Positions 7,520 to 55,562 of a stretch of 56,419 nt of DNA are shown here, piece by piece. Made by a program: the position numbers and the translations under genes. Origin of the DNA: a virus (Duplodnaviria > Caudoviricetes); the IMG/VR virus record IMGVR_UViG_3300021354_000009, positions 1-56,419 of that record; one strand, given 5' to 3'. The notes under the pieces were generated by a model. It did no database searches. It was not told the origin of the DNA and was given only the letters and a program-made list of their open reading frames with translations. Positions within the stretch are counted from its first letter, which is position 1. Each line of letters opens with the position of its first letter.

Positions 7520-8083
7520 TTAAATACTGAAGATAAAGTTGATCATTGTCGCTTTGGCTTGTGTGACGCCAGAAGCCGCGGGTGCAGACGATACCCAACC
7601 AGAACCGTTTGATGTCAACACGTTTCCGTTAGTTCCAGATGACGTCAAACCTGTACCACCGTTTGCGGCAATTAAAGTCCCCGCCAACGTGATAGCCCCA
7701 GTTGAACTGGTACTTGGCGTAAACCCTGTGGTGCCCGCGCTGAATGATGTCACACCACCAGTACTGGCCGCCCAAGTTGGTAAACCGCCAGACAATGTCA
7801 ACACATAGCCATTAGTGCCTACAGCCAACTTGCTTAGAGTATTTGTAGCCGATGCATATAGCAAGTCACCAGTGGTGTAGGTCGTCAGACCCGTACCGCC
7901 TGCGGTCGTTGGCGTTGTCTTCCAAGCGATAACTTGTACAGCGTTCGAATTGTCTTTGTAGAACAACTTACCATCGGTGACGTTGATCGCCAACTCACCA
8001 TTTGCAAGATTTGTGTTTACAGGAACGGAAGCCGCTGTAGTGCTGTAGTACAGCGAAATTGGGGTATAGCCTGATGCGGACAT
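7520..8083 (-). CDS. Tail fibre-like protein
   Basis: N-terminal NGELAINVTDGKLFYKD motif and GGTG fibre repeats. Confidence 0.7.
   Translation of the reverse strand: MSASGYTPISLYYSTTAASVPVNTNLANGELAINVTDGKLFYKDNSNAVQVIAWKTTPTTAGGTGLTTYTTGDLLYASATNTLSKLAVGTNGYVLTLSGGLPTWAASTGGVTSFSAGTTGFTPSTSSTGAITLAGTLIAANGGTGLTSSGTNGNVLTSNGSGWVSSAPAASGVTQAKATMINFIFSI
7698..7710. repeat. Dispersed palindrome CCAGTTSAACTGG
   Basis: Exact match. Confidence 0.85.
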
Positions 8084-10230
8084 TAGAAAGTTCCTCCAGT
8101 AATGCCACCTGTAATTGTCCCATTAACGGCATTACAAGTTATTGATGAGTTTACCAATTCAGGTAGATTTCCGCTAGTAGCAGTTACAAAAGTTAAGTAA
8201 TTTGTTGCACCAGAAGATGCTGACGTAATACCCACATTAGTTGCGTTTGTTGCGGTTCCTGACGTCTCTGCGTTTAAGTTAGCCACTTGAGTTGTGGATG
8301 CAACCGTTAAAGGAGCCGTACCCGTGGCTATTGTCGAAATAAGCCTTGTACCTTGCACCGTCTGAGACGTAATAATTGCAGAGCCAGTGCTTAGTGTGTT
8401 TGTGCTCCAAGTGGTGTTTGCTGGCGCTTGGAAATGGGTGTCCCATGAACCTGCCGCTATTGCATTAGATAAAAGAGTTACATCAACAAATCCACCCGAA
8501 GGTACAGACACAATAAGTGTCCCTGAATTATTGTTGACTGTTATGGCACCACTGCTTTGGTTATTGTTGAATGTGTAATTAACACCATTTGCCAAAGTTG
8601 TTGCATTAGGTAATTGATATGTCTGCCCACCAGAACCAGTAACTACATAATTTGGTACAGATGCAACTGTTAATGTCGTGGTTGTACCAGTTGCGGCAAC
8701 ACTTAAATAACCTTGGCTAAGTGAATTTACAGAAATATTTTGATTTGCATCTTTAACAACAATGCCACTTGCACCGTTGGTTGCATTACCCAAAGCCGTT
8801 AATACACCAGTTCCAGTGGTTGTGGTGCTTGGAGCCACGCCTGCACCGCCCCCAATCATCAAAGCGCTAGCCGTTAAAACCGCGCTTGATGCCCATGTAC
8901 TTGCAGAACTGAAGTAAACAACACCGCCAGAGGTGCCTGCAACGGTCAAAGCAGGGGTTGTAGTTGGTGTTGCTACAGTAATTAAACCGCCAGTAAAACC
9001 AACGCTAGTAACCGTACCTGATGAAGTACTAATGGTTGCCCAAGTTCCATCACCTCGCAAATACGTGGTGGATGATGGTGTTCCTGAAACTGCACCAGAT
9101 AACGCTGTAACGCTAGAAATTAATGTGCCAGATGTTGGCAACGTAACTGCCGTATTTGCAGTTGCCGTAAAAGATTGTGTAAAAGCGCCTGAGTGCGTTA
9201 AGTTACCACCAATTGTGATCGTGCTTGATCCGTTGTTTACCCCAGTGCCACCACTTGCACCGCCTAGAGTACCACCCAAAGTAATCACGCCCGTAGTTGC
9301 AGTCGATGGCGTTAAACCACTTAAAGATGTTTGAAAAGAGGTAACCCCACCCGCAGAACCATTTGATGCAACAGTAATTTGACCTTGAGCATTAACAGTG
9401 ATGTTGGCATTTGTGTAGGAGCCTGCAACCACTGTTGTGTCAGCAATTGAAATAGTGCCTGTCGAGGTGATAGGGCCACCCGTAAGACCAGTTCCAGTTG
9501 CAACAGAAGTAACACCAGTACCCGTGGTAATTGAACCCCACACGCCATTTGCATAGCCTTCAAATGTTCCAGTAGTAGTGTTGTATCTAAGTTGGCCATT
9601 TGTGGCACTACCACGTTGTCCAGTAGTACCACTAGGAATTGTTATTGAAGCGGTGCCTGGCACCACTGGGTTAGACGCAATACCTATAGTGGGCGAACCA
9701 CCTATGCCGTTTCCATTGCTAACACTAATTTGATTAGTAGTACCAACGATTGTGGTAGCTGTAACAGTGTTTCCGTTAACAGTTAATAAACCAACCGCAC
9801 TTGTACTAGAAATGTTTTGTAAAAGTTGGCTTAAACCGATCAAAGGATTTGCAGAAACACCATCACCATTAGAGACGGTCATCCCTGAGCCAACCGTTAT
9901 TGAACGGTTTGTGACTGTGCTAGCGCTATCTTTGACAATAATTCCTGTACTTGCGCTATTCAAACTTGCTGACGCGCCAGTCATGTTGATTCGCAAAGTG
10001 GTGCCTGCGCCACCATCAGTTAAAGATAACCCAGTGCTAGTCGTTAAATAACGCGCTTGGGTCAATCCTGAAGTTGATCCAACAGTCAAAAACGGATAGT
10101 TCAGTGCGCCCGCACCAGAAATAGAGCTAGTAGTGGTTTGTACAGTTACACCGTTTTGAACAATAGGTACAAGCTCAGAACCCGTCAAGGCTGATGCGTT
10201 TGGTAGTTGGGTAATGGTTATATTGGCCAT
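8083..10230 (-). CDS. Tail fibre protein
   Basis: 715 aa, very rich in Thr/Gly/Ser; GQLRYNTTTGTFEGY, GVTSVATGTGLTGGPIT and TYLRGDGTWA fibre motifs. Confidence 0.8.
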   Translation of the reverse strand: MANITITQLPNASALTGSELVPIVQNGVTVQTTTSSISGAGALNYPFLTVGSTSGLTQARYLTTSTGLSLTDGGAGTTLRINMTGASASLNSASTGIIVKDSASTVTNRSITVGSGMTVSNGDGVSANPLIGLSQLLQNISSTSAVGLLTVNGNTVTATTIVGTTNQISVSNGNGIGGSPTIGIASNPVVPGTASITIPSGTTGQRGSATNGQLRYNTTTGTFEGYANGVWGSITTGTGVTSVATGTGLTGGPITSTGTISIADTTVVAGSYTNANITVNAQGQITVASNGSAGGVTSFQTSLSGLTPSTATTGVITLGGTLGGASGGTGVNNGSSTITIGGNLTHSGAFTQSFTATANTAVTLPTSGTLISSVTALSGAVSGTPSSTTYLRGDGTWATISTSSGTVTSVGFTGGLITVATPTTTPALTVAGTSGGVVYFSSASTWASSAVLTASALMIGGGAGVAPSTTTTGTGVLTALGNATNGASGIVVKDANQNISVNSLSQGYLSVAATGTTTTLTVASVPNYVVTGSGGQTYQLPNATTLANGVNYTFNNNQSSGAITVNNNSGTLIVSVPSGGFVDVTLLSNAIAAGSWDTHFQAPANTTWSTNTLSTGSAIITSQTVQGTRLISTIATGTAPLTVASTTQVANLNAETSGTATNATNVGITSASSGATNYLTFVTATSGNLPELVNSSITCNAVNGTITGGITGGTF

Positions 10231-10232
10231 AT

Positions 10233-10580
10233 TTACTGCCCCGGTGATGGACTCAAAGTATCAAGGTTTCCGTTATTAGAAGGCGTTTGAGTGTTTTGCT
10301 CAGGTGAAAGATCAAGTTGATTATCACCTGTTGTGATGATTGCGTCAGGATCCACAGCTACGCTAACGTCAGGACGTGGATACGCCAATGTAATGCGCTC
10401 AGTCTTGCGTGCAGGCAACCGATACGGATCCTTTTGATCAGCACAACCTTGTTGACAAACGCGAAGGCCTGGAAAATTTGGATCAGGCATTTCTTCAACA
10501 ATTGGTCTTTTCATCTTGCATCTGTCGCAAATGAAAATTGCAATTACTGCATTGCCTTCGGTGTTTAAAAAACGAGGCAT
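10233..10580 (-). CDS. Conserved Cys-containing (CxxC) morphogenesis-region protein
   Basis: ICDRC...VCQQGCADQKDPYRLP; located between adaptor and fibre genes. Confidence 0.55.
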   Translation of the reverse strand: MPRFLNTEGNAVIAIFICDRCKMKRPIVEEMPDPNFPGLRVCQQGCADQKDPYRLPARKTERITLAYPRPDVSVAVDPDAIITTGDNQLDLSPEQNTQTPSNNGNLDTLSPSPGQ

Positions 10581-10582
10581 TC

Positions 10583-11656
10583 TTACCTCGTGTACACGCT
10601 AATGTTTGGAGCAAAGTAGATTGGTGACTTATCACGCTCTTCTTGCTCCGCCATGATGAAGTACTTCTCCGCTTGGGCTTCCAAGTATTGAATCTTTGCG
10701 AGATCAATGGCAGGCAACTGTTGGCTCATTTGGTGAGCTAGCATATTCTGTATAGCCATCAACCAACGGTCTGGGATAGCCAATTGACCGTTCAGTGCAC
10801 CAACGTCTTCCACTTGGCTTGAATACCACACGGTCATTTGATAGAACGCGCTCTGTGGGGTTGGCCACAAAGTGATAGTTGCTTGGGGAATGGTACGGTT
10901 CAACCAGAACTGGAACGGTTGGTTTGCCGTAAAGTTCTTGTTTGGTAAGTTGGTGTAGTCATCACGGTTCAAACGAGCCATGGTGATTTCTGTTGAGTTC
11001 ACACCCAAGTACCACTCACGGATAGCCAAAGTAGTACCACCAAACGCTTGAATACGGTAGTACTGGACGTTTGCGCCTGGATCTATGTCTTGCCACAACC
11101 ACTGTCCATCCGTCACAGTAACCGCAGTTGCCGTGTACAGCGTCGTCCAAGTCGATCCATCGCTAGATGCTTGGTAGTAGTAACTCCACGTAGCAGAGCC
11201 TCCACCAGACACGTATGGCATCATGCCAATTGAGCCAATGTACTGAGGATTGTTTGTTCCGTAATTGACCACGATATTGCCATTGGCGCTACCTTGTTGG
11301 CAATAAGTTGCCACGTTGTCATCAGCCACGTTTTGGACGATACCGCCCGCACTCGTGGTGTACGAACCAATAGGTTGCGTCATCCAACGATACAAGGCGT
11401 TTAAAACGTCTACCCCACCCGTGGGTAGCAAGTACTCGTATTTGTTCGGCTGAAGCCCGTATACGTACTTCTTGATGGCAAAGTATTGGATACCTTGGTT
11501 GATCAAGTTGCTCAAGATCATGAAGAGAGACTGTTTTGAGGCTTGTACCTGTTCAACAGTCAACTCTTCCGCCAACTTGCCCGCGCGTCTAGCCCCATCA
11601 TCGATCAAGTTCTGAACGGTGATTACTGTTTGACCGACTGTTCCGCTAGTTGACAT
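10583..11656 (-). CDS. Head-tail adaptor / tail tubular protein with inserted discoidin-like beta domain
   Basis: Helical N-terminus, RDDYTNLPNK...ITLWPTP core; insert YQASSDGSTWTTL...YYRI resembles F5/8 type C. Confidence 0.65.
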   Translation of the reverse strand: MSTSGTVGQTVITVQNLIDDGARRAGKLAEELTVEQVQASKQSLFMILSNLINQGIQYFAIKKYVYGLQPNKYEYLLPTGGVDVLNALYRWMTQPIGSYTTSAGGIVQNVADDNVATYCQQGSANGNIVVNYGTNNPQYIGSIGMMPYVSGGGSATWSYYYQASSDGSTWTTLYTATAVTVTDGQWLWQDIDPGANVQYYRIQAFGGTTLAIREWYLGVNSTEITMARLNRDDYTNLPNKNFTANQPFQFWLNRTIPQATITLWPTPQSAFYQMTVWYSSQVEDVGALNGQLAIPDRWLMAIQNMLAHQMSQQLPAIDLAKIQYLEAQAEKYFIMAEQEERDKSPIYFAPNISVYTR

Positions 11657-18700: not shown

Positions 18701-19156
18701 TTAAACGTAAGCTTTGAACGACAAAGGATCGTCAGTGATCTTTGCAATCACTTCGTGGTCATTAATTGTCATAAAAAGCACTGGATCTTCGTTTTTATCT
18801 TCGTTTGGAACTGTGCGCTCCCAACGATCACCGCCCCATCGTGGTACACGAACAAAATCACCAACTTGTGCCCAAGTTCCCTCTGGCCAAAGCTCCATGG
18901 TGTCTCTGTTTTTGTACGCCAAAGGCCCAAGTGCCACGACCTTACCGATCATGTTGTTCCACTTTTCGTTTTCTTTGGTTTCGTCAACGATGATGATGCG
19001 TCCAGACGTCTTCTTGATGCGTCGTAGTTGGACAACTACGCGACCACCAAGAGGTGCTTGACCACAACTCACGTTGGGAAACGCCCAGTCCAGTTCAACT
19101 GGATCAGGCGTGCCTACGCTTCCCTCAATAGTAGGGATCTTCTCTTTCTCACTCAT
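18701..19156 (-). CDS. groES: GroES/Cpn10-like co-chaperonin
   Basis: PLGGRVVV...KTSGRIII...GKVVALGPLAY...VGDFV...INDHEVIAKI. Confidence 0.85.
   Translation of the reverse strand: MSEKEKIPTIEGSVGTPDPVELDWAFPNVSCGQAPLGGRVVVQLRRIKKTSGRIIIVDETKENEKWNNMIGKVVALGPLAYKNRDTMELWPEGTWAQVGDFVRVPRWGGDRWERTVPNEDKNEDPVLFMTINDHEVIAKITDDPLSFKAYV
19090..19102. repeat. Dispersed palindrome CCAGTTSAACTGG
   Basis: Exact match; extends to 15 bp. Confidence 0.85.
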
Positions 19157-19569: not shown

Positions 19570-22039
19570 TTTGATTTCCTTGAGGTTGTGGCATTGGTGC
19601 CATGGGGGGTGCCGCTTGTGCGACGGGTGGTGGCGTTGCCGCCAATTCGTTTGCGTGTTGAATCGTTTGATGAGTCAACTTTGAGTTTTCAATATCAATC
19701 TTTGTTTGGTTGTCCATGGCGTGCTGTTGCACCTCCGCGGCCAACTTAGCTTGATCGTACTGAACATCCGCTTGATCTTTAGTTGTCTTACGTTGTGTCT
19801 CTGCCATGCTTGTGTCGTGAACGACTTGGGCATCTGGTGGCAACACTTGCTTGGCTTGCTGTGCACGTTGTTGAGATTGTTGGATCAACTGTTGGAATGC
19901 GGGCACAAATTGCTCAAACACCTCTTTGGTGTCTAGCGTGATGTGTGCGCCAACTGTTGTGTACAACTTGTCCAACGCCGCGGTCAAGCGTGGATCATCG
20001 TAGTTCTCCACAGGCTTACCACCCTTAGCCTTAGCCACATAACCATTTGCACGGTTCAAGTACCACAGAGTCATGTGTTGCTTGATGTGCTCGATCAAGT
20101 GGTTCAGATAGGTTGGATCTGCAAATGGGGACTGTCCAAAGAATGGGTTTAAGCCAAATTGCAAGTGGTCTTGGATGTGCGCAATGTGATCTTGTTGCAT
20201 GTACGCATACGCTGGCTGTCCAAGAAGCATGGCCGCGTTCTCATCTGCCGACGTGCGTTGCTCAGGAGCAGGGGCGTCTTTCATCAACTCATTGATGTCT
20301 GGCACCTTCATCTGCTTTAAGAATCGCTCCAACACTTTGTTCATGTTGAACTCGTTTGGATGCTTCTCCGCTAAAGCCAATACCGCTTGGTTCTGAGCCA
20401 TGCGTTGAGTTTCAGAGAAGATATGGGGGTCAGAGACTGGCACAACATCCGTATTGCGTGCAAAGTCTTCACGGTTGATCTCTAGGTCAGCAACCACCTC
20501 AGACTTACGCATCTCATCAAAGTGCCAACGATTCAATCTGCAAAGAATCTTTAACACGCGACCTTGGCTCTCATGCAAACGTGCATGAATAGCGGAGAAG
20601 ACCGCCGCGCCCTGTTCAATCAACGCCTGTGTAGTGCCTACAGGGGCTTGTGAGGTCACATCAGCAATCTTCTCTTCACTGGTGCTCACCACGCCTTTAG
20701 CGGCGGTATCAAGCCATCCTAGGAGCTTAAATAGAACCTCAGACGGTGGGTTGAAAGGCATAGGCATAGCGATCTGGCGGATGTCCTGAACGCCTGGTGC
20801 GCCCTCTATCTCCACAATCTGCGTAACTTCTACCTGTTGGCTCTGTCCACTGATCTTCGCTCCTTTGAGCTTGAGCATGGTGGCTGAATTGTTGATGTGC
20901 GCAGAGTCGAGAAGCGCACGCAATGAGCCTGTGAGCGCCGCAGACAATCCACCAATTAAATGTGGCAAGCCAATAGCGTATGCACCACGCCATGGAATGA
21001 ACTTGAACTCCACAATCCAATCCAACTTGGTCATCGTCTCGTCTTGCTCTTCCCAATTACGGTACAAACCGACTACTTCGTGGTTTAGTTCGTCAATCAT
21101 TAAGATGTATGGAGCCATCTTGCCTTTGGTGTACTTGTCTTCTTCCATCTCCAAGTACGTATAGACGTGGTAAACCTTACGCAAACCGTCGTCGTTGTCT
21201 TCGTAGCTCTTGCCCTCGATCTTGTCGTTAGCCTTTTGAACCCTTGTAGGCTCAATTTGCATGGTGGCTTGGGTGAGGGTGATGTCACGGTACATGCCAC
21301 TAGCAATGCGACGATTGAACTCCCAATGGGTGATCTCGTGCATCTCCGCGGCGCGTTGTGCCGTGTAGAAGTTACTTGCCGCGAACGGCAGAATCACACG
21401 GTCAATAGGCAAGAACTCCACACATGGACGCTTCTTCTCCTCGTCAAACCACAACTTGAAGTACTGTGAGCCACCCAAAGGCAACTGAGTCAATAACTGT
21501 TCTTGCTCGTCACGGAACTCTTCAATCTGTTCAGTGATCTGCCAATTGAGGTAGTCACGCTTACGCTCTGCACGCTCACCTTTGAGGTCATCTATCTTGC
21601 CAATAATCTTGGTGCGAACTGGGCCATCGGGTGGGAACATCTCTTTGATAGCACGAGCCGCAAAGTCCACACAACCCTCAGCCATCGCGGGGTGCACCAC
21701 CTTAGACGCGCCCATGAAGGTAGCGCCGCCTGGCGCATCATTCCCCATACCAGTACGACGGATACCCTCTTCATACTGTTTGTCACGCTGTTCTCTGGCG
21801 TCTTTGTCTTTCTTCAGTAGATCAATGTACCGAGACGCTAACGTATTGAGTTCATACTCTTGATAGTCTTCCGCCATGTTGGAATAGAAGTCTGGGTTGA
21901 CCTCTGGGCCATCATCGGGCAAGTTAACTATGGCACTGCCATCAGGCAATTCCTCAGTGTCCATCTGAACTTCAGGCAGATCTACAAGAGCACTACCGTC
22001 GTCGTTCTCTGTGTATTGTGGGTCTAATTCATCCATCAT
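19556..22039 (-). CDS. Portal protein
   Basis: 827 aa; VVHPAMAEGCVDFAARAIKEMFPPDGPV and PVGTTQALIEQG motifs; C-terminal coiled-coil barrel as in podophage portals. Confidence 0.88.
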   Translation of the reverse strand: MMDELDPQYTENDDGSALVDLPEVQMDTEELPDGSAIVNLPDDGPEVNPDFYSNMAEDYQEYELNTLASRYIDLLKKDKDAREQRDKQYEEGIRRTGMGNDAPGGATFMGASKVVHPAMAEGCVDFAARAIKEMFPPDGPVRTKIIGKIDDLKGERAERKRDYLNWQITEQIEEFRDEQEQLLTQLPLGGSQYFKLWFDEEKKRPCVEFLPIDRVILPFAASNFYTAQRAAEMHEITHWEFNRRIASGMYRDITLTQATMQIEPTRVQKANDKIEGKSYEDNDDGLRKVYHVYTYLEMEEDKYTKGKMAPYILMIDELNHEVVGLYRNWEEQDETMTKLDWIVEFKFIPWRGAYAIGLPHLIGGLSAALTGSLRALLDSAHINNSATMLKLKGAKISGQSQQVEVTQIVEIEGAPGVQDIRQIAMPMPFNPPSEVLFKLLGWLDTAAKGVVSTSEEKIADVTSQAPVGTTQALIEQGAAVFSAIHARLHESQGRVLKILCRLNRWHFDEMRKSEVVADLEINREDFARNTDVVPVSDPHIFSETQRMAQNQAVLALAEKHPNEFNMNKVLERFLKQMKVPDINELMKDAPAPEQRTSADENAAMLLGQPAYAYMQQDHIAHIQDHLQFGLNPFFGQSPFADPTYLNHLIEHIKQHMTLWYLNRANGYVAKAKGGKPVENYDDPRLTAALDKLYTTVGAHITLDTKEVFEQFVPAFQQLIQQSQQRAQQAKQVLPPDAQVVHDTSMAETQRKTTKDQADVQYDQAKLAAEVQQHAMDNQTKIDIENSKLTHQTIQHANELAATPPPVAQAAPPMAPMPQPQGNQNGNF

Positions 22040-25000: not shown

Positions 25001-25287
25001 TTTAAGTCAATGCTATTGGAGCCACCATCTTCAAAGCTTCTAACGTTTCCACCCTTGTTCATCAACGCATAACGCATACTGTCCATGTCGGTAGACCCCA
25101 GTTGAACTGGGGCTTCGGTATCTGCTTGACCCAGTGGGCGCAATGGCTGAGTCTTCTTCATAGCGTCTTCCAAGTGCTGTTGCCCCAATTGGCGACGACG
25201 CTCCATCTCAGCACGCTTGGCGAACTCTTCACGTAGTTGCATTAGCTTTGCACGTGCTTCGGGTGATGGGCCTTGAGGTTCTGCCAC
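22036..25287 (-). CDS. Large multi-segment protein between TerL and portal, divided by 8 xxxGG motifs
   Basis: 1083 aa; GTG start with GAAGGA RBS; low-complexity and globular segments alternate. Confidence 0.7.
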   Translation of the reverse strand: MAEPQGPSPEARAKLMQLREEFAKRAEMERRRQLGQQHLEDAMKKTQPLRPLGQADTEAPVQLGSTDMDSMRYALMNKGGNVRSFEDGGSNSIDLNDLQQAIKGRAPTIPEQFNRYIAPHINRGLDAMLPFRQLVQKKFENNVYNPLNEAVLNNISSAIKTSGVNDSDVEMGKTHIANAVKKSIGMEPQRILFDAQKALGDINEGEFDRQYVDMDKRYAQRYEELKKLIAKGKAEGGTVNPFDYENPEHVASVSEHVAKHKDFSKLPDASKRLGETLSQGSYKHIEDPRVQMALRKLGHNAYFTQEKTGKKLNQMVIKKAIGGAVPSINQMRQALLANGKSAFGNIENVGANEAPNMDVKAYINPDQKRDGIMPIGGVTMGNQPLPMGGVDMSKQGGQQLMPPNMTPPPQQGQPQGAPQGGMPPMPPTGGAPNPMAQPPSNILQMTPQGQAMSAMQPPKPQGMANGGIATLGQMTGAVNSPSVPQFSQGGLEPNPLPTIIKAPDSNDRPPVSNQNMDNGATDYTIDNFQQLAKGGKVEVRPTVFDDKATRRNERIEEAARALMEGDMKQKAYAKVVAKEKPVKPYDFIPMPATDEQAMNVLIPKQKESYRTHESWPEGHRVGLRLDIPSYERHGVWINSIHDESSGKDKFPPSYGPVSSVRNAEFQGTPNKAIRVATGEQNKAPFAKIMGELEHIDEEKALKHMMKYLRHPDYRQVGYDPRRHGDFYDRETMEPITHSEHVVQIGPLVLAKKPVYGKRTLYKEGGTAKPTTKSPDKFKPTATKASEALGKHEGKHLKVTQSDRTKVGGGFLGGPGFSGLQHIYPSHKDVAWGVNSTGAASKIANANAMHPEGQALWSTLLGAPNQHTSNQMVFDMLMKQFKNSIKSGKMTPELRNNINEQLGIAVDKEGKPVFGNPDISSKNFFKNLNTFDQRRVMADLMGGKAVGGKKGQIINYDKTVSDTTEPELLGAPTHAIGPRLFQLSGQRSVQPDLNPAFPHMLHGEDLGQMYHPVPREIMLPEFHKKIKETKGRNVGVMDLTRNTPSQHLTEDFLTHLQKHGYKKGGNVSMDEMQATLTLKKKKAK
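25098..25110. repeat. Dispersed palindrome CCAGTTSAACTGG
   Basis: Exact match; extends to 17 bp. Confidence 0.85.
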
Positions 25288-25341
25288 GGCTATTCCTTCA
25301 TTGTGGGATGCACCGATTATGCCTTCGGTATCGTTCTAAGT

Positions 25342-26772
25342 CTACGCCCCATATGGGTTCACCTTGTTGCGCTTGTTGAACTCCATAGCATCAATCAAAT
25401 CGTCTTCGTCGTAGTCTTCTCGTGGTGGTGGATCAATCGATATCCAACCTGAGTCACGTAAGTATCTAAGCCCTTGGCTAATACAGTCAACGAACTCGTC
25501 GTGTGCTGTCTCAGGGAACGCGCATATCTGGGACACCATGCCCTCAGCCCAATCCCTGACAAAGCCTTTGCGTATGCCAGACTCAGGCACCCACACTCGG
25601 CCTGCCCTGATGATGTTGGCAACGATGCTTAGTCTCTGTGTCTTGTCAGCGTTGCCAGGGTTGTACCCATACACAGGCAAGTGACCACGTTGCAAGTCTT
25701 GTATAAGACTGATACCCGCGGCCTTGTCTTCTACCAATATCAAGTCCACACGCTTCTTCTCTTTGCCTTCACCATACACCGTCTCATACTCTTCAATCAC
25801 CTTGGGGCGTAGGTCTGGGTACTGAAGCTTGTCTTGCCAACAGTCAATCACCATCACGCACATACCGCCATCCAATGGCTTAAACGCTCCAAGCGTTATG
25901 CACCCAGTAGGGTCGTTCTCTTTGCCATCTTTAAAGCCACAGTCATAGCTCTGGATGATGTACTCGAACTTGGGATAGGGCTTACCGTCTGGCCAGAGCC
26001 TAAACCAATCACGCTTGACGATGCCGAACTCTTCTCCATCTAGAAGCTCTGCGTGGATCTCTTGGCGTCCGAGCCTTGTGCCCTCATAGCTAAGGATCTG
26101 CTTCTGGAAGTTGCTAGATAGGTTCTTGATGTTGCTATACGTACTGGCGCGCGTGATCACCACGTCATCACCCTCACGCCCTACCAGATCCATTACTACG
26201 TCTTTAGGCTTGGGTGTAGTAGACGCAATGATCTTGGTCTTGGTGCCCAGTCGAACTGCGAACATGATCATGTCCCACGCTTCTTGTAGGTAGTCCCAAG
26301 CGGCCAACTCATCAAGCCAAGCGCCATGCCACTGACCACCACGGAAGCGATCAGGCTCCGATGCCGATATGCCTTTGATGAACGATCCGTTGTATAACGT
26401 GATCTCGTGCAAAGTCTTGTTGTAGTCTTTTACTAGCTTCTCAGGGATTATCTTCATCAAGCCTGATTCACCGTCAAAGCACGTACCACGCAAGTCACCA
26501 GACGTGGGGGCTGACACTAACCAACGTGTATTGGGTTCGTTCCATGCCCAAGACGCTAGAGTCTCTGCGGCGGCTCTGGTCTTACCCGCACCACGTCCAC
26601 CCAACAGCAACCACACATCCCACCAATCCCCCGATGGCTCTAGTTGGTGCTTGTGTGCTTGTTCGCTTACCCACTTCAGTTGCCAATTGATGGCCAACTG
26701 ATTCAGTATAGGTCTGCTACGGTACTCTTCTACAAACGTGGGATCGACCAGAAGCTCGTCTAGTACGCTCAT
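25342..26772 (-). CDS. terL: Terminase large subunit
   Basis: Walker A GGRGAGKT, Walker B AWLDE, RNase H-like C-terminus (SYDCG...HDEFVD). Confidence 0.95.
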   Translation of the reverse strand: MSVLDELLVDPTFVEEYRSRPILNQLAINWQLKWVSEQAHKHQLEPSGDWWDVWLLLGGRGAGKTRAAAETLASWAWNEPNTRWLVSAPTSGDLRGTCFDGESGLMKIIPEKLVKDYNKTLHEITLYNGSFIKGISASEPDRFRGGQWHGAWLDELAAWDYLQEAWDMIMFAVRLGTKTKIIASTTPKPKDVVMDLVGREGDDVVITRASTYSNIKNLSSNFQKQILSYEGTRLGRQEIHAELLDGEEFGIVKRDWFRLWPDGKPYPKFEYIIQSYDCGFKDGKENDPTGCITLGAFKPLDGGMCVMVIDCWQDKLQYPDLRPKVIEEYETVYGEGKEKKRVDLILVEDKAAGISLIQDLQRGHLPVYGYNPGNADKTQRLSIVANIIRAGRVWVPESGIRKGFVRDWAEGMVSQICAFPETAHDEFVDCISQGLRYLRDSGWISIDPPPREDYDEDDLIDAMEFNKRNKVNPYGA

Positions 26773-27119
26773 TCTGATTGGCGTTGTAGTCTGATGTTCT
26801 TGAGCAACTCACCAAACACGTCTACGTTGTGCTCAATCACCAATGGCTTCTCATCGTTACCAATGTGCTCGGTACGCGCCAACTTCGGTATGTGGTACTC
26901 CACCACCGATTGGAACATGTCGAATGCTTTGGCTGGATTTGGTGGCACCACGTACTCATCACCATCTGGCGTTTTCACTCCTTCAGCTACTTGGTCGAGC
27001 CATCCAGTGAGCCTGTGAGCGTTTGCGTCCACAAACAAGGCTATGGCTTGCCGAGCTTCGTTTGTGACCTTGTTGGGCGTTCCTGCCACCCTACCGCCTG
27101 TCTTCTTGCCCTCAGCCAT
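26769..27119 (-). CDS. terS: Terminase small subunit
   Basis: GKKTGGRVAGTPNKVT N-terminus and PKLARTEHIG C-terminus; overlaps the TerL start. Confidence 0.8.
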   Translation of the reverse strand: MAEGKKTGGRVAGTPNKVTNEARQAIALFVDANAHRLTGWLDQVAEGVKTPDGDEYVVPPNPAKAFDMFQSVVEYHIPKLARTEHIGNDEKPLVIEHNVDVFGELLKNIRLQRQSE

Positions 27120-27412: not shown

Positions 27413-27647
27413 GGCTTGTACCCATTACACGAAGCTCCATGACTTTGTTTGCACGCTTGAGCTTTTGGTTCTCTTCTTTGAGGCGCAATATCTCTGATGT
27501 CATGTATGCGAGGCGACTTGATGCGTGATCTATCCAATCCTTTACTTCCGTAGGCATTGAGAACTGTTTGGACTCCAGTTGAACTGGGGTCTTCTTAGTT
27601 TTCTTTGCCACGGTCTTTTTGGCCACGATCTTTTTAGCTGTTGCCAT
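27405..27647 (-). CDS. Hypothetical coiled-coil protein
   Basis: 80 aa; Lys-rich N-terminus; overlaps both neighbours. Confidence 0.65.
   Translation of the reverse strand: MATAKKIVAKKTVAKKTKKTPVQLESKQFSMPTEVKDWIDHASSRLAYMTSEILRLKEENQKLKRANKVMELRVMGTSLE
27575..27587. repeat. Dispersed palindrome CCAGTTSAACTGG
   Basis: Exact match. Confidence 0.85.
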
Positions 27648-34654: not shown

Positions 34655-34685
34655 ATTATAGCTACGTTGTAGCAACTCGTGTCAA
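34655..34685 (-). promoter_or_regulatory. Sigma70-type promoter, 19-bp spacer
   Basis: TTGACA-19-TATAAT with perfect hexamers; the spacer contains GCTAC-N3-GTAGC. Confidence 0.65.
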
Positions 34686-35540
34686 TACCTCTTTTCGTAA
34701 ATCCATAACTTTTTTTACAACTGCCATCAAACCACGCTTATCGTGTAGATCATTGACGTCATATCCGACCTCATCTGCCATCGTCCAAGGCAACCCAGTC
34801 TCAATAGCAGACTTCTCACCAGTCTTGCTCACATCGTTGTCTGCAAAGATAAAACAATCGCCTTTGACTTGACTAGCAACTTGAACCATGTTGATGGCAG
34901 AAAAGCACACCATCACAGAACTGTTTAAACCGACGCTACGCAAGGCTTTATGCAAGGATAGACCTGTGGAGTAACCCTCGACCAACCACACCTCTGGAGC
35001 CTCTCTAGACCCCATCAAGAGCACCGCGTTCTTAGCACGCATACCGTGGAGCATCTTCTTGTTGTACTTGCGATTTGGTTCGTCCCAATAGATCTCTTGG
35101 TAACCTTGTAACTTACCCGTCACTACGTTACGCATAGGCACCAACAACTTACCGTCCAAAACATAGCCTTGCATGTCTTTAAAGCCTTTGATCTCCAAGT
35201 ATGGGTGGCTTTCCATCTTGGCAGAACGCAACGTGTTGGTAGCTTTCTCAGACGCCATGTCGTATGAACGGTTCTTGTCAGCATTTAACACTTGGCGCTT
35301 TGCCATCCAATCACGCTTCTCTTGTTCAGACCAAGGCTTGGCATTTGGGTCTTCGTACCAGATAACTCTGGCTTCTTCTGCCCAGTTCATCACCCACCCA
35401 CGTTTGCCATCGTAGAAGAACGCACCGTTGGTGGACTTAGGCTTATCAAGCGTCCCACACCGACGAATACGCTCAGATGGGTATAGGTTGTTTAAATCAA
35501 TCTCTACGCCATGGGCGCGTGCAAAGTTAATAAAGCTCAT
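34662..35540 (-). CDS. Toprim-domain DNA primase
   Basis: HPYLEIKG, LLVPMR, LVEGYSTGLS, IFADND and YDVND motifs. Confidence 0.88.
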   Translation of the reverse strand: MSFINFARAHGVEIDLNNLYPSERIRRCGTLDKPKSTNGAFFYDGKRGWVMNWAEEARVIWYEDPNAKPWSEQEKRDWMAKRQVLNADKNRSYDMASEKATNTLRSAKMESHPYLEIKGFKDMQGYVLDGKLLVPMRNVVTGKLQGYQEIYWDEPNRKYNKKMLHGMRAKNAVLLMGSREAPEVWLVEGYSTGLSLHKALRSVGLNSSVMVCFSAINMVQVASQVKGDCFIFADNDVSKTGEKSAIETGLPWTMADEVGYDVNDLHDKRGLMAVVKKVMDLRKEVLTRVATT

Positions 35541-37108
35541 TTACTACCTATCGCTTTCAAAAACACAGCCATATCACTGGGTGCTTTATTTGCTTTTTTG
35601 TACGCCATGTTGAATTGCATGATTTTGTTATGCACATTACGTGTAATCTCAACAGTTGGTTGAGTCGTAAATTTCCACATAGGATCTTGGCCAGTGATCT
35701 TTCTATACAAGTGATAAGCACGACCTTGTTGAGACTCTGGTTTAGAGTGTTTGCGTGCATAAGTCACCACTTGAGCCCATAGGTGTTCAGCGTTGTCAGC
35801 AAGCTTTTTTTTGTTCTTACCCTCACCAATAAAGATCTCAGACATGTGACCATCTTTGGCGTCTTCCATGAGCTTGGATGGTCGCTCATATCCACAACCC
35901 ATACAACGCTTAGTGAACGGTTTATACCCACACTTGGGGCAACCTTTCATCTCGTAGTCTTCGTCTTTACGGATCTTCTTATCGAGCTTCTCGCCCGTGT
36001 CTAGCTCTGCTAAACCATTGAAAAATATGTCAGTGAAGTCTTCGGCAAAGCGAATGATGTTGCCACTAAAGTCCAATAGGTAACAGTCTTTTTTATCATT
36101 CTCAGGAGACGACCGTAAGCCACGTCCCCACATCTGGATGGCAGTAGACAACGACTTACGCAATGGGCGTGCGTCACACACGCAACCCACGTCAGGTACG
36201 TCAAAGCCTTTGGCTAGTGCTTCCACGGAAATCAAAACACGCAAAACACTGTCTGGTCTACGGTACTCTTCCAAAAGCAATTCACGCTCTTTGTCGGTGG
36301 TTTGTGAAGTAAAGACCGCGGCCATAACGCCTTGGTCAATAAACGACCTACACAACTCCTCACAGTGCTTGATCGTCGCCCCAAACACAATGGTTTTGCG
36401 ATTCTCAGCAAATGTTAACCACTCGTTTACAACGTCACCGACGATGCCCATCTCACGCTCTTCTGCCGCCTTATCCGTCCACTCACCGCCCGCAGTATCT
36501 GCACCCTTCATATCGGGCTTTGTGCAAGAAAATATCCTCATGGGCACCAACACCCCTGATTCAGTCAGATCGTGCATCGTGGTGGCGTTTATGAGGTTTG
36601 TGAATATTTTGCCTAAGCCATTGGAAAACGGTGTGGCTGAGAGTCCAATAATCGCCGCACCACTTTGCAACGCATAGTCCGTCCACACCTTGTATTGGGT
36701 ATGCGCTTCGTCCACCACCAGAACGTCCAACTGTGGCCAGAACTCACGCTTTGCGATGGTCTGGGCGGACGCTATCTGCAATAACATCTCAGGGCTTTTG
36801 CGCCAATGGTTGGCTTGGATAATTCCATGCTCACTAAGCCCATAGGCGTCTGCCACTGTAGAAGTCTGGTTGATCAGAGTAGTACGGTCACACAGAAATA
36901 CCGCACGCTTACCCTTTTGCATGGCTTCATTACAAATTCTTAATCCAAGGTAAGTCTTGCCCGCCCCTGTTGGAGCCATAATCAATTGATTCTTATGGCC
37001 AGACTTAAACCCTTTACGAAGTTGCTCGTGGGCAGACAGTTGGAAAGGGCGTGGTTCAGGAAAAGTTGTTCCATCATCACACCCACTTGGTGCTAGGTTT
37101 TTGGTCAT
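35537..37108 (-). CDS. SF2 DEAH-box helicase with C-terminal Zn ribbon
   Basis: APTGAGKT, VDEAH, GLSATP, QMWGRGLR and CPKC...CMGC. Confidence 0.93.
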   Translation of the reverse strand: MTKNLAPSGCDDGTTFPEPRPFQLSAHEQLRKGFKSGHKNQLIMAPTGAGKTYLGLRICNEAMQKGKRAVFLCDRTTLINQTSTVADAYGLSEHGIIQANHWRKSPEMLLQIASAQTIAKREFWPQLDVLVVDEAHTQYKVWTDYALQSGAAIIGLSATPFSNGLGKIFTNLINATTMHDLTESGVLVPMRIFSCTKPDMKGADTAGGEWTDKAAEEREMGIVGDVVNEWLTFAENRKTIVFGATIKHCEELCRSFIDQGVMAAVFTSQTTDKERELLLEEYRRPDSVLRVLISVEALAKGFDVPDVGCVCDARPLRKSLSTAIQMWGRGLRSSPENDKKDCYLLDFSGNIIRFAEDFTDIFFNGLAELDTGEKLDKKIRKDEDYEMKGCPKCGYKPFTKRCMGCGYERPSKLMEDAKDGHMSEIFIGEGKNKKKLADNAEHLWAQVVTYARKHSKPESQQGRAYHLYRKITGQDPMWKFTTQPTVEITRNVHNKIMQFNMAYKKANKAPSDMAVFLKAIGSK

Positions 37109-37941
37109 TTTTTACCTTTTAATTTGTCGTTTTCTTTCTGGAGTTTTTGGCACAACTTGATGCACTCGCTCTTCTCACGCATGATTGAGGCTATACGCAC
37201 ATCTTTTTGAGCCACCAAATGGTTCAGACGCTTGATGTCTTGGTATGCCGTAGCTAGCGCATCGTCAGACTCTAGAAGCTTGGTAATAGCATCCATGTCA
37301 GATTTCATGGCTAACTCATTGGCTTTTAACTCTTCATCGTCTGGGGCGTTACCGTCTAAAATGGATGGTTTGGGTTCAAGCCCAGTTGAACTGGACTCGG
37401 CACTACCAGTTGAACTGGACTCTTGACCCCCAGTTGAACTGGACTCGGTAGTGCCAGAAATCTTCTTTTGGTAGTGAGCTAGACGGTTTTGCTCTTGCTT
37501 TTTCCTGACCTCTGGGTTGCGCTCCGCGGCCACAAACGTCTCTGAAACTTCGCACAACTTAGCAAGTTGGATGTTGCTCAAATCCTTGTGACGGTCTTGG
37601 GATAAAGCCCATTGAACTTTGTTTTTCTTATCTTCTTTGGTCAAGCCAAAGCCATGATCTTTGTTGGCACCAAGTGCTAGGTCTTGAGCATCTTCTTTGG
37701 TGCCTGGCCGATACTCAATCTCTATTTCTACAACATCAAGCTTCTTATACGCATGGTAACGGTGAAACCCATTCCATAACCAATACTCAGAACCATCAAA
37801 CGTAACTTGCATGGGTGGAAAAACATCCCCGTCTTCCATGCACTCAGCATAATGATTTATGTTTTTTTGGACAATCTTCTTTCTAAATTGTGTTTCACCA
37901 TCAATACGTATTTGATCTAACTTCACAGTTCTTTTTGTCAT
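37105..37941 (-). CDS. ParB-like (ParB/Srx-fold) protein with HTH and C-terminal coiled coil
   Basis: PPMQVTFDGSEYWLWNGFHRYHA (GxxRxxA arginine patch); HTH LSNIQLAKLCEVSETFV. Confidence 0.8.
   Translation of the reverse strand: MTKRTVKLDQIRIDGETQFRKKIVQKNINHYAECMEDGDVFPPMQVTFDGSEYWLWNGFHRYHAYKKLDVVEIEIEYRPGTKEDAQDLALGANKDHGFGLTKEDKKNKVQWALSQDRHKDLSNIQLAKLCEVSETFVAAERNPEVRKKQEQNRLAHYQKKISGTTESSSTGGQESSSTGSAESSSTGLEPKPSILDGNAPDDEELKANELAMKSDMDAITKLLESDDALATAYQDIKRLNHLVAQKDVRIASIMREKSECIKLCQKLQKENDKLKGKK
37382..37446. repeat. Three tandem 17-bp repeats (24-bp period), each containing the palindrome CCAGTTGAACTGG
   Basis: CCAGTTGAACTGGACTC at 37382, 37406 and 37430. Confidence 0.95.
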
Positions 37942-37954
37942 TCATTTCTCCAAT

Positions 37955-38058
37955 AAAAAAGCCCTAGACGAGACTCTCATTCTTGTGGAATGTTGGCGGA
38001 CACCGAGTAGGTGCAGAGTCTCGACTAGGGCTTACTCTAGACACGCCGCCAAGCGTTG
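37955..38058 (-). ncRNA. Structured leader RNA / attenuator, C4/P4-CI-like
   Basis: 18/19-bp closing stem (37959-37977 / 38015-38033), two inner hairpins, leader hairpin whose sequence UUGGCGG complements junction CCGCCAA, U6 tract. Confidence 0.65.
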
Positions 38059-38062
38059 AAAA

Positions 38063-38092
38063 ACTATATCACGAAAACAAATCTGGTCGCAA
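38063..38092 (-). promoter_or_regulatory. Promoter for the parB-helicase-primase operon
   Basis: TTGCGA-18-TATAGT with an extended TG. Confidence 0.55.
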
Positions 38093-38269
38093 TTCCTTCT
38101 TGCTAACCAATTGCTGAGTTGCTTCTTCAATCCTCACGCACAACAATGGGGATGCTTGCTTTTTACCACTCATCAGTAGTGAAAGCCACGTAGGTGTGAT
38201 GCCAAGGTGCTCCGCCATCTCAAGCTTCGCCCCCCTTGGCTCTGTCGAAAAATATTCTGTCAGAGTCAT
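38069..38269 (-). CDS. Cro/YdaS-like HTH regulator
   Basis: MAEHLGITPTWLSLLMSG...CVRIEEAT...ELRPDLF. Confidence 0.88.
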   Translation of the reverse strand: MTLTEYFSTEPRGAKLEMAEHLGITPTWLSLLMSGKKQASPLLCVRIEEATQQLVSKKELRPDLFS

Positions 38270-38391
38270 TGTTGTCCTTGAAGGGTGTTGGCAATGCGTC
38301 TCTCATAAAGCAGAGTGTTCGACTTCCTATGTATTTGCACAAAACGAGGAAGATAAGGCGCTAACCCTTATTACGCACTACCAACATTTGC

Positions 38392-38452
38392 ATTCTACAA
38401 TAACTCTTTGTTAGATTCAACTTGACACGTTGTTTTAATTATGTGTTATAGT
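38392..38452. promoter_or_regulatory. Divergent promoters with two operator-like boxes
   Basis: Minus strand TTGAAT-17-TAGAAT (38420..38392); plus strand TTGACA-19-TATAGT (38422..38452). Confidence 0.65.
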
Positions 38453-38487
38453 TGCCGTGCGGTATGTAACCGTTTAAGGAGTTTTAA

Positions 38488-39132
38488 ATGAGTTTTTTTG
38501 TTGAAAATAAAGGTAATTTTGAGTCAACCCCGTCAGGTTCTCACTTGGCAAGATGCTATCGAATCGTTGATCTCGGTACGCAAAAGACGGAGTACATGGG
38601 TGAGTCCAAGCTCCAACACAAGATCATGATTGGTTGGGAAATCCACGGAACGAATGAAGATGGCACCCCCATCAAAATGCGTGACGGACGCCCATTTGCC
38701 ATATTCAAGAACTACACCTTGTCATGGTCTGAGAAAGCCACCCTACGCATCCATTTGCAATCATGGCGTGGTAAGCCCTTCACCCAAGAAGAAATGCGTC
38801 GCTTTGACCTTAAAAACGTGCTTGGTGCATGGTGTATGTTGAACGTGATTGAGACTTCCAAAGATGGCAAGGTATACACCAACGTAGCTACCGTATCCCC
38901 AGTTCCATCGGTCATGAAGCAATCTGGTCTACCAGAGCCTGTTAATAAGAACGAACTGTTCGTACTCGATAAGCCAGACATGGAAATGTTCAACGGTTTT
39001 AGTGATCATTTGAAAACAAAAATTCAAGCATCACCAGAGTGGCAACAGTTGAATAGCAAGTCCAAGAAGATAGACGACATTGCTCCAAAGGTGGCTTCGT
39101 TTGATGAAGACGATAGCGATATTCCTTTTTAA
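38488..39132 (+). CDS. Single-stranded DNA-binding-like protein
   Basis: GSHLARCYRIVDLGTQ N-terminus; acidic tail FDEDDSDIPF. Confidence 0.75.
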   Translation: MSFFVENKGNFESTPSGSHLARCYRIVDLGTQKTEYMGESKLQHKIMIGWEIHGTNEDGTPIKMRDGRPFAIFKNYTLSWSEKATLRIHLQSWRGKPFTQEEMRRFDLKNVLGAWCMLNVIETSKDGKVYTNVATVSPVPSVMKQSGLPEPVNKNELFVLDKPDMEMFNGFSDHLKTKIQASPEWQQLNSKSKKIDDIAPKVASFDEDDSDIPF

Positions 39133-53292: not shown

Positions 53293-53314
53293 GTGTGCCT
53301 TTTTTGGACTTTAA

Positions 53315-54377: not shown

Positions 54378-54541
54378 TTAGACTCCTTTAGTTCCCGTTT
54401 AAGTTTCCGCAATTCTTTGATCTCTTGCTTAAGCTGCGCCCTCATATATAGGGTTTCTACGTATGCCATCGAGGTTACTCCCACAATTACGCATATCGCT
54501 ACTCCTATCAGTATCCACCAGACAAGTTTTGTAGTTCCCAC
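54374..54541 (-). CDS. TM + coiled-coil peptide (possible i-spanin-like)
   Basis: LVWWILIGVAICVIVGVTSMAY followed by a coiled coil; ATGA overlap with the holin. Confidence 0.5.
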   Translation of the reverse strand: MGTTKLVWWILIGVAICVIVGVTSMAYVETLYMRAQLKQEIKELRKLKRELKESK

Positions 54542-55217
54542 ATGATCCACCCAAAGAATGAAGATATAAATACCACGGCAACTACCCCACTTGTTAACTC
54601 AATGAACCTAATCTCATCTTGCTCCTTGCGCCATCTTGCCAGCCTAGCCCTACGAATCTGCTCTGCCCTTGCCCACTCCTGTTCACGTTCAATCTGAGCG
54701 TGCATCTTTAGGAATCGGCTATACAAGTCTTTCAACTCCATCGGTGCGTAAACCATTGCCTCTCGCACCTGATCCATCAACTTCTCTAACTGCAACTCAA
54801 TCAGCGCCCGCTCTATAGCCTTTTTGCTGTTGTTTTGCTCTGGGCTGTACTGGTTCTTCGATTGTTCTTCTAGTTCATGGTAGTGGTTCGAGATTGTTTG
54901 CTGAGTGTCAAAGAGCACTCCAAGATTTGCCCCGATCTCACTAACAAGTTTGAACTCAAGCTCTTCATAGGACTGTTGGGCTTTGGCGACTTTCTTTTGC
55001 GCCACAGGCTTGGGGGCATCGGAGGTGGGCTTGGTTGTGAACAGACCAACGAACCAGTCCCATACACCCTTGATGGCTTTGACGTCACCAATAGCTTGCT
55101 CAACAGTCTTCTTAGCCCCTTCGATCTCCATGCGACCTTGGTGCAACATGTCGCACCCTGTTTTAATGGCTGAGACTGCACTTTGAGCGAGGAGAAGGAG
55201 ACTGAAAACGGATCCAT
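54508..55217 (-). CDS. Coiled-coil protein with C-terminal TM; apparent frameshift just after the start codon
   Basis: ATG at 55217 is out of frame with the long ORF (FSLLLLAQSAVSAIKTGCDMLHQG); the shift maps to the T4 run at 55205-55208. Confidence 0.6.
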
Positions 55218-55219
55218 AT

Positions 55220-55414
55220 CTAGATGCCTAAAAGCTTCTTAACAAAATCAGCGGCAACGCCTGGGCCAAACAACACAGCCAAGATCACCGCATACAAGAT
55301 GTACTCAATACGTTGCATACGATCTTTGCCACTCTCCAATCGATCAGAGATGACTCGATATCTCTCCGAGCATATGGCTTCGTGGACTGCGAAATCTTTC
55401 TCTATGTCACTCAT
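55220..55414 (-). CDS. XhlA-like small membrane protein
   Basis: HEAICSERY...RIEYILYAVILAVLFG. Confidence 0.65.
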   Translation of the reverse strand: MSDIEKDFAVHEAICSERYRVISDRLESGKDRMQRIEYILYAVILAVLFGPGVAADFVKKLLGI

Positions 55415-55562
55415 CTTTGGGCTTTTCGTCCAGTTCAACTGGGGGTTGATTCTTGGCTTCGGTCTGAATAGTCTCAATCATTTGGAACACCTCTTGATAG
55501 GGGCGTGTTCCAAGATAGCCAAGGATCTGGTTTACTAGTTCAACTGATAATTGCAATTTCAT
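55407..55562 (-). CDS. Small conserved phage protein
   Basis: ILGYLGTRPYQEVFQMI; AAGGA RBS. Confidence 0.65.
   Translation of the reverse strand: MKLQLSVELVNQILGYLGTRPYQEVFQMIETIQTEAKNQPPVELDEKPKDE
55430..55442. repeat. Dispersed palindrome CCAGTTSAACTGG
   Basis: Exact match. Confidence 0.85.

Follow-up and report, generated by a model that had tools for sequence, protein, structure and literature searches.

On the IncP-1 plasmids RK2 and R751, the ParB-fold protein KorB is described as a clamp that slides along DNA to silence promoters at a distance (PMC11790492, PMC13768133). The core of its operator, OB (TTTAGCGGCTAAA), is 13 bp long, with two 6-bp arms on either side of a single base (PMC11790492), and twelve OB sites are reported on a replicon of roughly 60 kb, at positions conserved among relatives (PMC13768133). 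Sites within phage replication genes are described for SPP1, in which oriL lies within gene 38 and oriR in the late region, with the fork proposed to stall at gp38 bound to oriR (PMC6316719, PMC3485210). ParB-fold proteins without a ParA are presented as common on phages in PMC12704722, a survey whose text assigns them no DNA sites or roles. Here, we describe a dispersed 13-bp palindrome, CCAGTT(G/C)AACTGG, in IMG/VR virus record IMGVR_UViG_3300021354_000009, the genome of an uncultured freshwater tailed phage that also encodes an orphan ParB-like protein; comparison with related phages indicates that this protein very probably binds the palindrome. The window analysed is the whole record, 56,419 bp in length, which is classed as linear and was rated 100% complete by CheckV.

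Enrichment of a 13-bp palindrome at the DNA level

The palindrome (CCAGTTSAACTGG) has a 6-1-6 geometry, two 6-bp arms about a free centre base, and is the most frequent 13-mer in the window. All eight exact copies listed in the initial annotation, which had been made from the sequence alone, were found again, starting at positions 7698, 19090, 25098, 27575, 37382, 37406, 37430, and 55430. Dinucleotide shuffles of the window (n = 100) gave a mean of 0.01 copies and a maximum of 1, and shuffles of synonymous codons within genes (n = 500) averaged 0.116 copies and never exceeded 2, bearing out the excess that had been claimed. Six further sites match at 11 of the 13 positions (8807, 26247, 30696, 47953, 53108, and 55535). 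Three of these had been listed before, of which 53108 and 55535 stand, while the one placed near 47943 lies at 47953. Together, exact and near matches number 14, against 1.52 expected. Given these shuffle expectations, and as the copies are read in three frames (PV[Q/E]L, SSTG, and PQLNW) rather than the two first reported, the enrichment is at the level of DNA, and chance or protein-level repeats can be ruled out as its source. The three copies between 37382 and 37442 form one 24-bp tandem repeat of 2.8 units (37382-37448); thus, the following eight copies represent six independent places, not eight.

7698..7710, copy in a tail-fibre-like gene (7520-8083), at amino acids (aa) 125-129 (TSSTG)
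19090..19102, copy in the N-terminal segment, aa 19-23 (PVELD), of a GroES-like gene (18701-19156)
25098..25110, copy at aa 60-64 of a 1083-aa gene (22036-25287), within its variable N-terminal extension and 232 nt past the large-terminase stop
27575..27587, copy in the Lys-rich variable N-terminal tail of an 80-aa gene (27405-27647), upstream of the terminase genes
37382..37394, unstranded, copy in the linker of the ParB-like gene (CCAGTTGAACTGG)
37406..37418, unstranded, copy in the linker of the ParB-like gene
37430..37442, unstranded, copy in the linker of the ParB-like gene
55430..55442, copy that probably lies between genes, about 25 nt upstream of the presumed real start codon of a small gene ending at 55220

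Homologues of the small gene ending at 55220 begin MSDIEKDF, which places the 55430 copy upstream of the probable start, so the earlier statement that all copies are inside genes does not hold. Every other copy falls in a predicted disordered linker, in a variable N-terminal tail, or in a tail-fibre-like protein. A hairpin or terminator was rejected, as arms separated by one base would leave a 1-nt loop, an implausible RNA hairpin; a terminator scan flagged a single site, 27570-27592, on the non-coding strand.

The gene that holds three copies encodes an orphan ParB-like protein

Three of the copies lie, as first noted, within the gene for the ParB-like protein (parB in what follows), the relevant parts of which, including the helix-turn-helix (HTH), are as follows.

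37105..37941, minus strand, orphan ParB-like gene, 278 aa (phrog_1033 'ParB-like partition protein', E = 2.2e-15, aa 4-139)
37519..37581, minus strand, HTH coding stretch, about aa 121-141 (...SNIQLAKLCEVSETFVAAERN...), with modelled helices at 123-130 and 134-141
37342..37440, minus strand, linker-coding stretch, about aa 168-200, predicted disordered, in which the three in-gene sites read (E)SSSTG three times

The protein comprises an N-terminal domain of the ParB/Srx type, the HTH, a disordered linker, and a C-terminal helical hairpin. In its AlphaFold2 model, with a predicted local distance difference test score (pLDDT) of 83.4, residues 1-167 (N-terminal domain and HTH) and the hairpin (202-277) are confident, and linker residues 170-198 have a pLDDT below 50. 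Using Foldseek, ParB (7bnk, 6sdk, 7bm8, 6t1f), Noc (7ng0, 7nfu), and KorB (8qa8, 8qa9) were matched over about 140 columns, with E values from 1e-7 to 1e-4 and with 7bnk, 6sdk, 7ng0, and 7nfu as the best matches; the aligned columns correspond to the N-terminal and DNA-binding domains of ParB, Noc, and KorB, and the HTH helices fall within them. A profile search against the PDB returned sulfiredoxin (2.5e-6) and ParB (3e-4), and the match to TIGR04285 was marginal, at 20 bits against a cut-off of 315.

Q18, R20, and N93 are invariant in the 42 aligned homologues and may sit where the QPR and ENLxR motifs lie, which would correspond to Box I (the C motif) and Box III. The P motif of Box II, GxxR, as defined in PMC12704722, is found at G58-F59-H60-R61 and is invariant in 42 of 42 homologues. 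The same account describes Box III as often divergent in orphan ParBs and states that neither sequence nor AlphaFold3 predicts the nucleotide of a ParB-like protein (PMC12704722). The LG[R/K]GL motif for ParA binding, again by the definition in PMC12704722, was absent from the sequence when it was read through. PHROG scans of the 60 open reading frames (ORFs) of at least 80 aa detected no ParA or integrase, in agreement with the initial annotation, and no repressor. As both a ParA gene and the ParA-binding motif were missing from these analyses, the locus is not classed as a canonical ParABS partition system. A ParB activator of the 5mYOX type was also rejected, as no dioxygenase was found in the window scans and the protein has an HTH.

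Related phages carry palindromes of their own

To find relatives, an alignment query was needed, as a search with the single ParB protein returned no related loci. At least 395 confirmed matches in viral contigs and 184 matches in bacterial genomes were obtained with the alignment, and a terminase search gave at least 598 related viral contigs. A palindrome with arms of at least 6 bp is present at gene nucleotides 400-650, the stretch encoding the linker after the HTH, in 47 of 53 homologous parB genes (42 of 47 distinct proteins), compared with a background rate of 0.14 per stretch. Most homologues have a single palindrome there and no iteron array. The arms range from 6 to 12 bp, nearly always with a 1-bp centre (the palindromes of relatives include CTAATCnGATTAG and GGAATTnAATTCC), and two variants are 12-bp palindromes with no centre base. 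Arm sequences differ between phages and include CTAATC, CTAGTC, GTAGTC, GGAATC, GGAATT, GGAGTC, GTAATT, GTAATC, GCGATT, TCGGTT, CTGGTT, and CCAGTT. One and the same DNA motif is read as SSTG in the parB gene of the window and as PVKLD in that of relative G012. Tandem peptide repeats were seen in the linkers of two very distant homologues, ESDSTPSL three times in L231 (Zeimonas chromosome, 10430-10600) and ESSSTG three times in the window (37382-37448), and in both the peptide repeat arises from a repeated DNA site, so that here a DNA motif clearly dictates a protein repeat.

To examine dispersal, 16 whole or large records were used, each with a parB gene and a linker palindrome. In these genomes the own linker palindrome occurs 73 times (2 to 9 copies each, with up to 9 in G027), 21 times inside parB and 52 times elsewhere, compared with 4 copies in the 236 mismatched genome-by-motif cells. 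When palindromes were searched for de novo, ignoring the gene, the parB-linker motif ranked first in 16 of the 18 records that bear parB. In seven records that have no parB gene, the top palindrome has two copies at most, except in G007, where it has three. As many records are incomplete, little weight can be put on an absence from such a record. The initial annotation had proposed testing whether each parB homologue carries its own intragenic palindrome, whether this is also dispersed, and whether it varies with the HTH; the first two parts came out positive here, and the third is taken up below.

The half-site covaries with residues of the HTH

Covariation rules were counted over 47 rows. 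Outside the linker, which encodes the motif and is trivially correlated with it, residue 134, the first of the second HTH helix, shares the highest mutual information with the half-site, followed by residue 124, and residue 135 shares 0.97 bit with base 4, near the full entropy of that base. All 16 rows with proline at 135 have A at base 4; three more rows with A have K or H at 135. Glutamine at 134 goes with CT (15/15 rows), histidine with GG (5/5), and arginine or lysine with GT (6/6), and D or E goes with C at base 2 in 13 of 16 rows. Residues 124, 134, and 135 therefore track the half-site in relatives, and the third part of the proposed test came out positive as well. No contrary independent pairs were found for four of the five residue-134/135 rules, and the rule linking D/E to C at base 2 has a mean of 0.1 contrary pair per random pairing. 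In a tree from which the HTH and linker columns had been left out, P and A change 9 and 11 times, and on starred branches five of five independent P/A pairs agree (p = 0.06, the best value possible with five pairs), with nine pairs available when all branches are used.

The window (I..ET, CCAGTT) clusters with phages of the DK/GCGATT type, far from the other clade combining ET or DT with CCAGTT. Matches in bacterial genomes that lay outside the derivation of the rules obey them (L228, QS/CTAGTC; L239 and L231, HP/GGAATC; L225, DT/TCGGTT), and L226 (DT, GCGGTT) is a loose fit.

Sites recur at a small number of places

The own site is present in the parB linker in 16 of 16 phages and within 0-50 nt past the terL stop in 12 of 15 relatives, often doubled, and it occupies the last codons of the homologue of gene 31387-31659 in 6 of 15. 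A long palindrome follows terL in 26 of 78 terL loci, compared with about 5 expected from the background rate, and in G000, G028, and G031 sites lie on both sides of the terminase genes. Further recurrent spots lie in large virion proteins and either in the N-terminal part of the GroES-like gene or in the gene beside it, and several sites adjoin intergenic gaps. Homologues of gene 27405-27647 in G025, G028, and G031 carry the palindrome of their own phage in the same Lys-rich tail, and in G025 the GroES-like gene, too, contains that phage's palindrome, a few codons farther on than in the window. L005, the nearest relative by terminase (89% nucleotide identity), has neither of the local sites, including the 27575 copy, and the homology breaks exactly there, which implies that sites are gained and lost quickly. 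A short element just past the terminase stop (25280-25345) is 90 to 92% identical in L005-L008, with flanks that diverge or are replaced; it contains a weak promoter-like match (TAGACT-17-CATAAT), and the gene that follows has its ribosome-binding site and GTG start codon in it.

The parB gene heads a helicase-primase cassette

Nearly all genes of the window are on the minus strand. In the PHROG scans, terminase, portal, capsid, tail, and lysis genes were identified, as was an early block in which parB is followed by the first two of the following genes; the other two are separate from it.

35537..37108, minus strand, SF2 helicase (phrog_16, E = 3.3e-75; ResIII and Helicase_C), with a start that overlaps the parB stop
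34662..35540, minus strand, primase-like gene (phrog_2249, E = 5e-28; weak Toprim_3 match), third gene of the cassette
38488..39132, plus strand, NGO0469-family gene, 'phage replication initiation protein' (NF046043.1, E = 3.1e-64, 215.7 bits against a cut-off of 75)
26769..27119, separate small ORF that occupies the usual terS position

The parB-helicase-primase order, with overlapping stop and start codons, is also found in a distant Variovorax prophage (L239), and 43 distinct full-length helicase homologues start at the parB stop (53 viral loci). In G001, G002, and G007, parB, helicase, and primase are all missing together. A Holliday-junction resolvase and a PD-(D/E)XK exonuclease are also encoded by the phage. 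No DNA polymerase gene was detected in PHROG and Pfam scans of the window ORFs, so the phage must recruit host enzymes, presumably the host polymerase. The gene at 38488-39132 is divergent from parB, has homologues in the ParB-less G002 and G007 as well, and is a second candidate initiator.

The 546-bp divergent region between these two genes (37942-38487) yielded no iteron-like repeat family, and an inverted repeat and AT-rich patches alone were found in it. The inverted repeat (37959-38033) has 19-nt arms that are 95% complementary and a 37-nt spacer, and the patches (GC content of 27 to 33%) lie on both sides of it, making this a candidate control or origin region. Around the in-gene sites, the stretch of lowest GC content was not unusual (mean z of -0.06, n = 21). 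G007 (L100-L102), which is without the cassette, has a replication module with a DUF1376-like protein and a DnaB-like helicase, and it carries a palindrome of its own, AAACCGAnTCGGTTT, at 25047, 25229, 32511, 33074, 37954, and 42274, and of these copies the first replication gene and the small-terminase gene hold one each.

Relatives, host, and other genes of the window

A megablast search with 20 kb of the window found no match among GenBank phages. One uncultured relative was identified among the GenBank phages, and Acidovorax phage AP1 is the closest cultured phage with part of the ParB-like gene and with the helicase-primase order; AP1 has the G003-type variant alone and is reported to be lytic (PMC11597636, PMC8879335). 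The closest matches in bacterial genome bins were small contigs in metagenome-assembled genomes (MAGs) of freshwater Burkholderiales, not plasmids, and from these the host is probably a betaproteobacterium.

Four paralogous genes at 721-7121 encode repeats of the RCC1 type (PHROG 'regulator of chromosome condensation', also tail-protein families). They contain 150-bp tandem repeats and probably encode tail fibres, and they are the source of the second commonest long k-mer of the window, CCAAAACAAGTTGG, with six copies. The 359-aa product of the gene at 31652-32731 belongs to phrog_11143 (E = 8e-114), an uncharacterised family of phage proteins, and shows a weak signature of GNAT acetyltransferases.

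Interpretation of the site network

We propose that the palindrome is the cognate site of the phage's own ParB/KorB-type protein and that the pair exerts KorB-like control, a reading that, taken as a whole, we hold to be modestly probable. A dimer would read the two 6-bp arms by its HTH. One to three sites would be written into the part of the protein's own gene that encodes the disordered linker, with further copies at a few recurrent places, around terminase genes, at gene ends, and in the variable tails of structural genes. Protein and site form a pair specific to each related phage, and cross-talk between the networks would thereby be avoided. By analogy with KorB on plasmid RK2, the protein may load at its sites in a nucleotide-dependent manner and, once loaded, could act on the flanking phage DNA over kilobases. 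The most likely effect would be the timing or silencing of gene blocks, for example the terminase genes, and sites that bracket the terminase genes would suit the control of late functions. That the network consists of KorB/ParB-type loading sites for genome-wide control, rather than of replication origins, is a suggestion drawn from this analogy to which we give somewhat less than an even chance.

A number of observations count against this interpretation. The whole case for binding and for a role is comparative, and the independent pairs on well-supported branches are few. As about 100 bp separate the HTH from the in-gene site, linkage could carry the two along together, an objection that does not reach the copies tens of kilobases away. 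No Pfam family was assigned to the protein at E ≤ 0.01. Six of the 53 loci have no long linker palindrome, and L227 has none either. G003 has a different N-terminus, with ParB and HTH parts, ahead of the same C-terminus, and its genome yielded no dispersed motif of any kind. In place of a palindrome, the linker in G022 (L188-L190) has a direct repeat of a non-palindromic 14-15-mer, which occurs four times in all (12768, 12783, 23572, and 52719), two of them elsewhere in the genome. This 14-15-mer contains GGAGTT, the half-site expected from the HT recognition residues of G022, which also has two copies of the 12-bp GGAGTTAACTCC. In distant prophage homologues, the in-gene sites stand alone within ±10 kb. 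A consensus promoter scan of the window gave 9 matches compared with 25.5 in shuffles, with no clear link between sites and promoters, and no KorA-like gene that could supply a KorA/TrbA-like partner was identified in the window. Lastly, parB invariably leads the ParB-helicase-primase cassette, and the three genes are exchanged as one block, as in G001, G002, and G007, which points to replication.

This last point agrees with an explanation in which the ParB-like protein is a replisome organiser, the origin-binding protein of the cassette, with the in-gene sites as the primary origin. The dispersed copies would serve as secondary origins, as places where the helicase is loaded, or as barriers at which forks stop and replication turns to concatemer synthesis, the last as proposed for gp38 bound at oriR. 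We regard it as rather unlikely, with an appreciable chance nonetheless. The gene order kept in 53 viral loci and in the Variovorax prophage, and the joint absence of all three genes from ParB-less relatives, are as expected of such an organiser, but the ParB-less relatives keep the separate NF046043 gene at 38488-39132. An in-gene site mirrors oriL inside gene 38 of SPP1, with oriR in the late region, yet most homologues have one palindrome in place of an iteron array and no AT-rich stretch for unwinding near it. The in-gene sites that stand alone in distant prophages also speak for it, whereas six dispersed places in the window, and as many as nine copies in G027, are many for origins. Recruitment of host enzymes in place of a DNA polymerase of its own, the presence of the resolvase and exonuclease, and the situation in G007, where a different replication module has a palindrome inside its first gene and another near terS, are also consistent with an organiser. 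Against it stands the protein itself, with its ParB/Noc/KorB fold and invariant GxxR motif for nucleotide binding; neither is known to be a feature of lambda O or gp38.

The remaining explanations have much less to recommend them. Sites that start packaging or help condense DNA, in particular those flanking terS and terL, with the ParB-like protein as an accessory, would account for the palindromes behind terL in 12 of 15 relatives and 26 of 78 loci and for the bracketed terminase genes of three genomes. This is improbable given that some 10 kb separate parB, a gene of the early/replication block, from the terminase genes, that sites are also found in tail and virion genes, that a separate small ORF occupies the usual terS position, and that no link between the ParB fold and terminase emerged from the analyses made. 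Still less probable is a coincidental link to ParB, with the sites bound by another factor, be it a protein of the host, a second protein of the phage, or an enzyme of restriction-modification or methylation. It draws on the comparative nature of the case for ParB binding and on the palindrome network of G007, which exists without this ParB subfamily. However, the motif shifts between phages in step with HTH residues of ParB, which makes a host factor unlikely, and it is confined to the genome encoding the matching protein (4 copies in the mismatched cells). The NGO0469-family gene is present in G002, G003, and G007, which are without the network. Phages usually avoid restriction targets, whereas this motif is enriched, and a restriction or methylation target was rejected on these grounds and because the motif changes with the phage's own HTH. 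Partition in the manner of a plasmid, with the sites as centromeres and a host ParA acting in a carrier or pseudolysogenic state, had been among the options offered by the initial annotation and found no support; we consider it very improbable. Dispersed centromere sites are known from prophage N15, and the ParB fold, the scattered palindromic sites, and the distant homologues in chromosomal prophages are compatible with it, but no ParA, integrase, or repressor was found, the LG[R/K]GL motif is missing, the cultured relative AP1 is reported as lytic, and the closest genome matches are small contigs in MAG bins, not plasmids.

A more speculative, unlikely variant is that a nucleotide-gated clamp of the ParB fold has been recruited as the site-specific loader of the phage's SF2 helicase and primase pair, with the palindromes as dispersed loading points, either origins or fork-control sites. 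If true, a virulent phage would here have a replication organiser of a hitherto undescribed class, in which a natural amino-acid-to-base recognition code keeps co-infecting relatives from cross-talk.

Literature searches brought up PMC12704722 and PMC13229309, their supplementary datasets aside, but no account of a network of dispersed sites for a phage ParB or of a recognition code of this kind. The fixed ParB-helicase-primase cassette offers a testable link of ParB clamps to replication, and a whole phage family supplies matched protein-site pairs; with at least 12 natural specificities one or two HTH residues apart, the putative recognition code is open to direct bench testing. The network is also of a plasmid style in phages with no sign of lysogeny, and as its sites are forced into coding sequence, mostly in disordered or variable segments, DNA-level selection would shape protein linkers.

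Comparison with known systems

With ParB/Spo0J-parS and Noc-NBS, the phage system shares the N-terminal ParB-CTPase fold, the HTH, and dispersed palindromic sites. An in-gene site also has a precedent, as one parS of Bacillus subtilis lies inside spo0J itself. Differences are the missing ParA and ParA-binding motif, the marginal sequence similarity, and the site, which is 13 bp with a free centre whereas parS is 16 bp.

The likeness to lambda O and SPP1 gp38 consists in sites inside the protein's own gene, in a linker-like part (ori-lambda is inside gene O), in a gene that precedes helicase genes, in a second set of sites in the late region, and in a specificity that differs between related phages. 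In contrast to the single palindrome of most parB genes, which has no AT-rich flank, those origins are described as arrays of direct repeats with an AT-rich unwinding element (PMC6316719). The phage protein also differs in its ParB fold and in the presence of a separate initiator-family gene.

Orphan phage ParBs (PMC12704722) and ParBs that activate 5mYOX enzymes (PMC13229309) are described as phage-encoded proteins of the ParB-CTPase fold without a partner, and in this they resemble the protein studied here. The 5mYOX activators are presented as having no obvious DNA-binding domain (PMC13229309), unlike the phage protein, and the window scans gave no dioxygenase. BisD of ICEclc is portrayed as a CTP clamp resembling ParB, carried by a mobile element and influencing promoters over long distances; it differs in that it is said to activate transfer competence, and to do so within an integrative element (PMC12409273).

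A close counterpart in site design is KorB with OB. KorB is described as working with IncC, a ParA, and with KorA and TrbA, which lock the clamp; none of these were seen in the window. Its sites are at or upstream of promoters, whereas those of the phage are mostly within coding sequence. The C-terminal domain of the phage protein is a predicted helical hairpin, its gene belongs to the helicase-primase cassette of a phage with no sign of lysogeny, and nucleotide binding is here presumed by analogy. What the two systems have in common is the ParB fold with an HTH, a 13-bp 6-1-6 site, and the number and scatter of the sites. The OB sites are conserved in position, and those of the phages, with eight copies at six places in the window and two to nine copies in relatives, likewise turn up repeatedly in the parB linker, behind terL, and where the homologue of the gene at 31387 ends.

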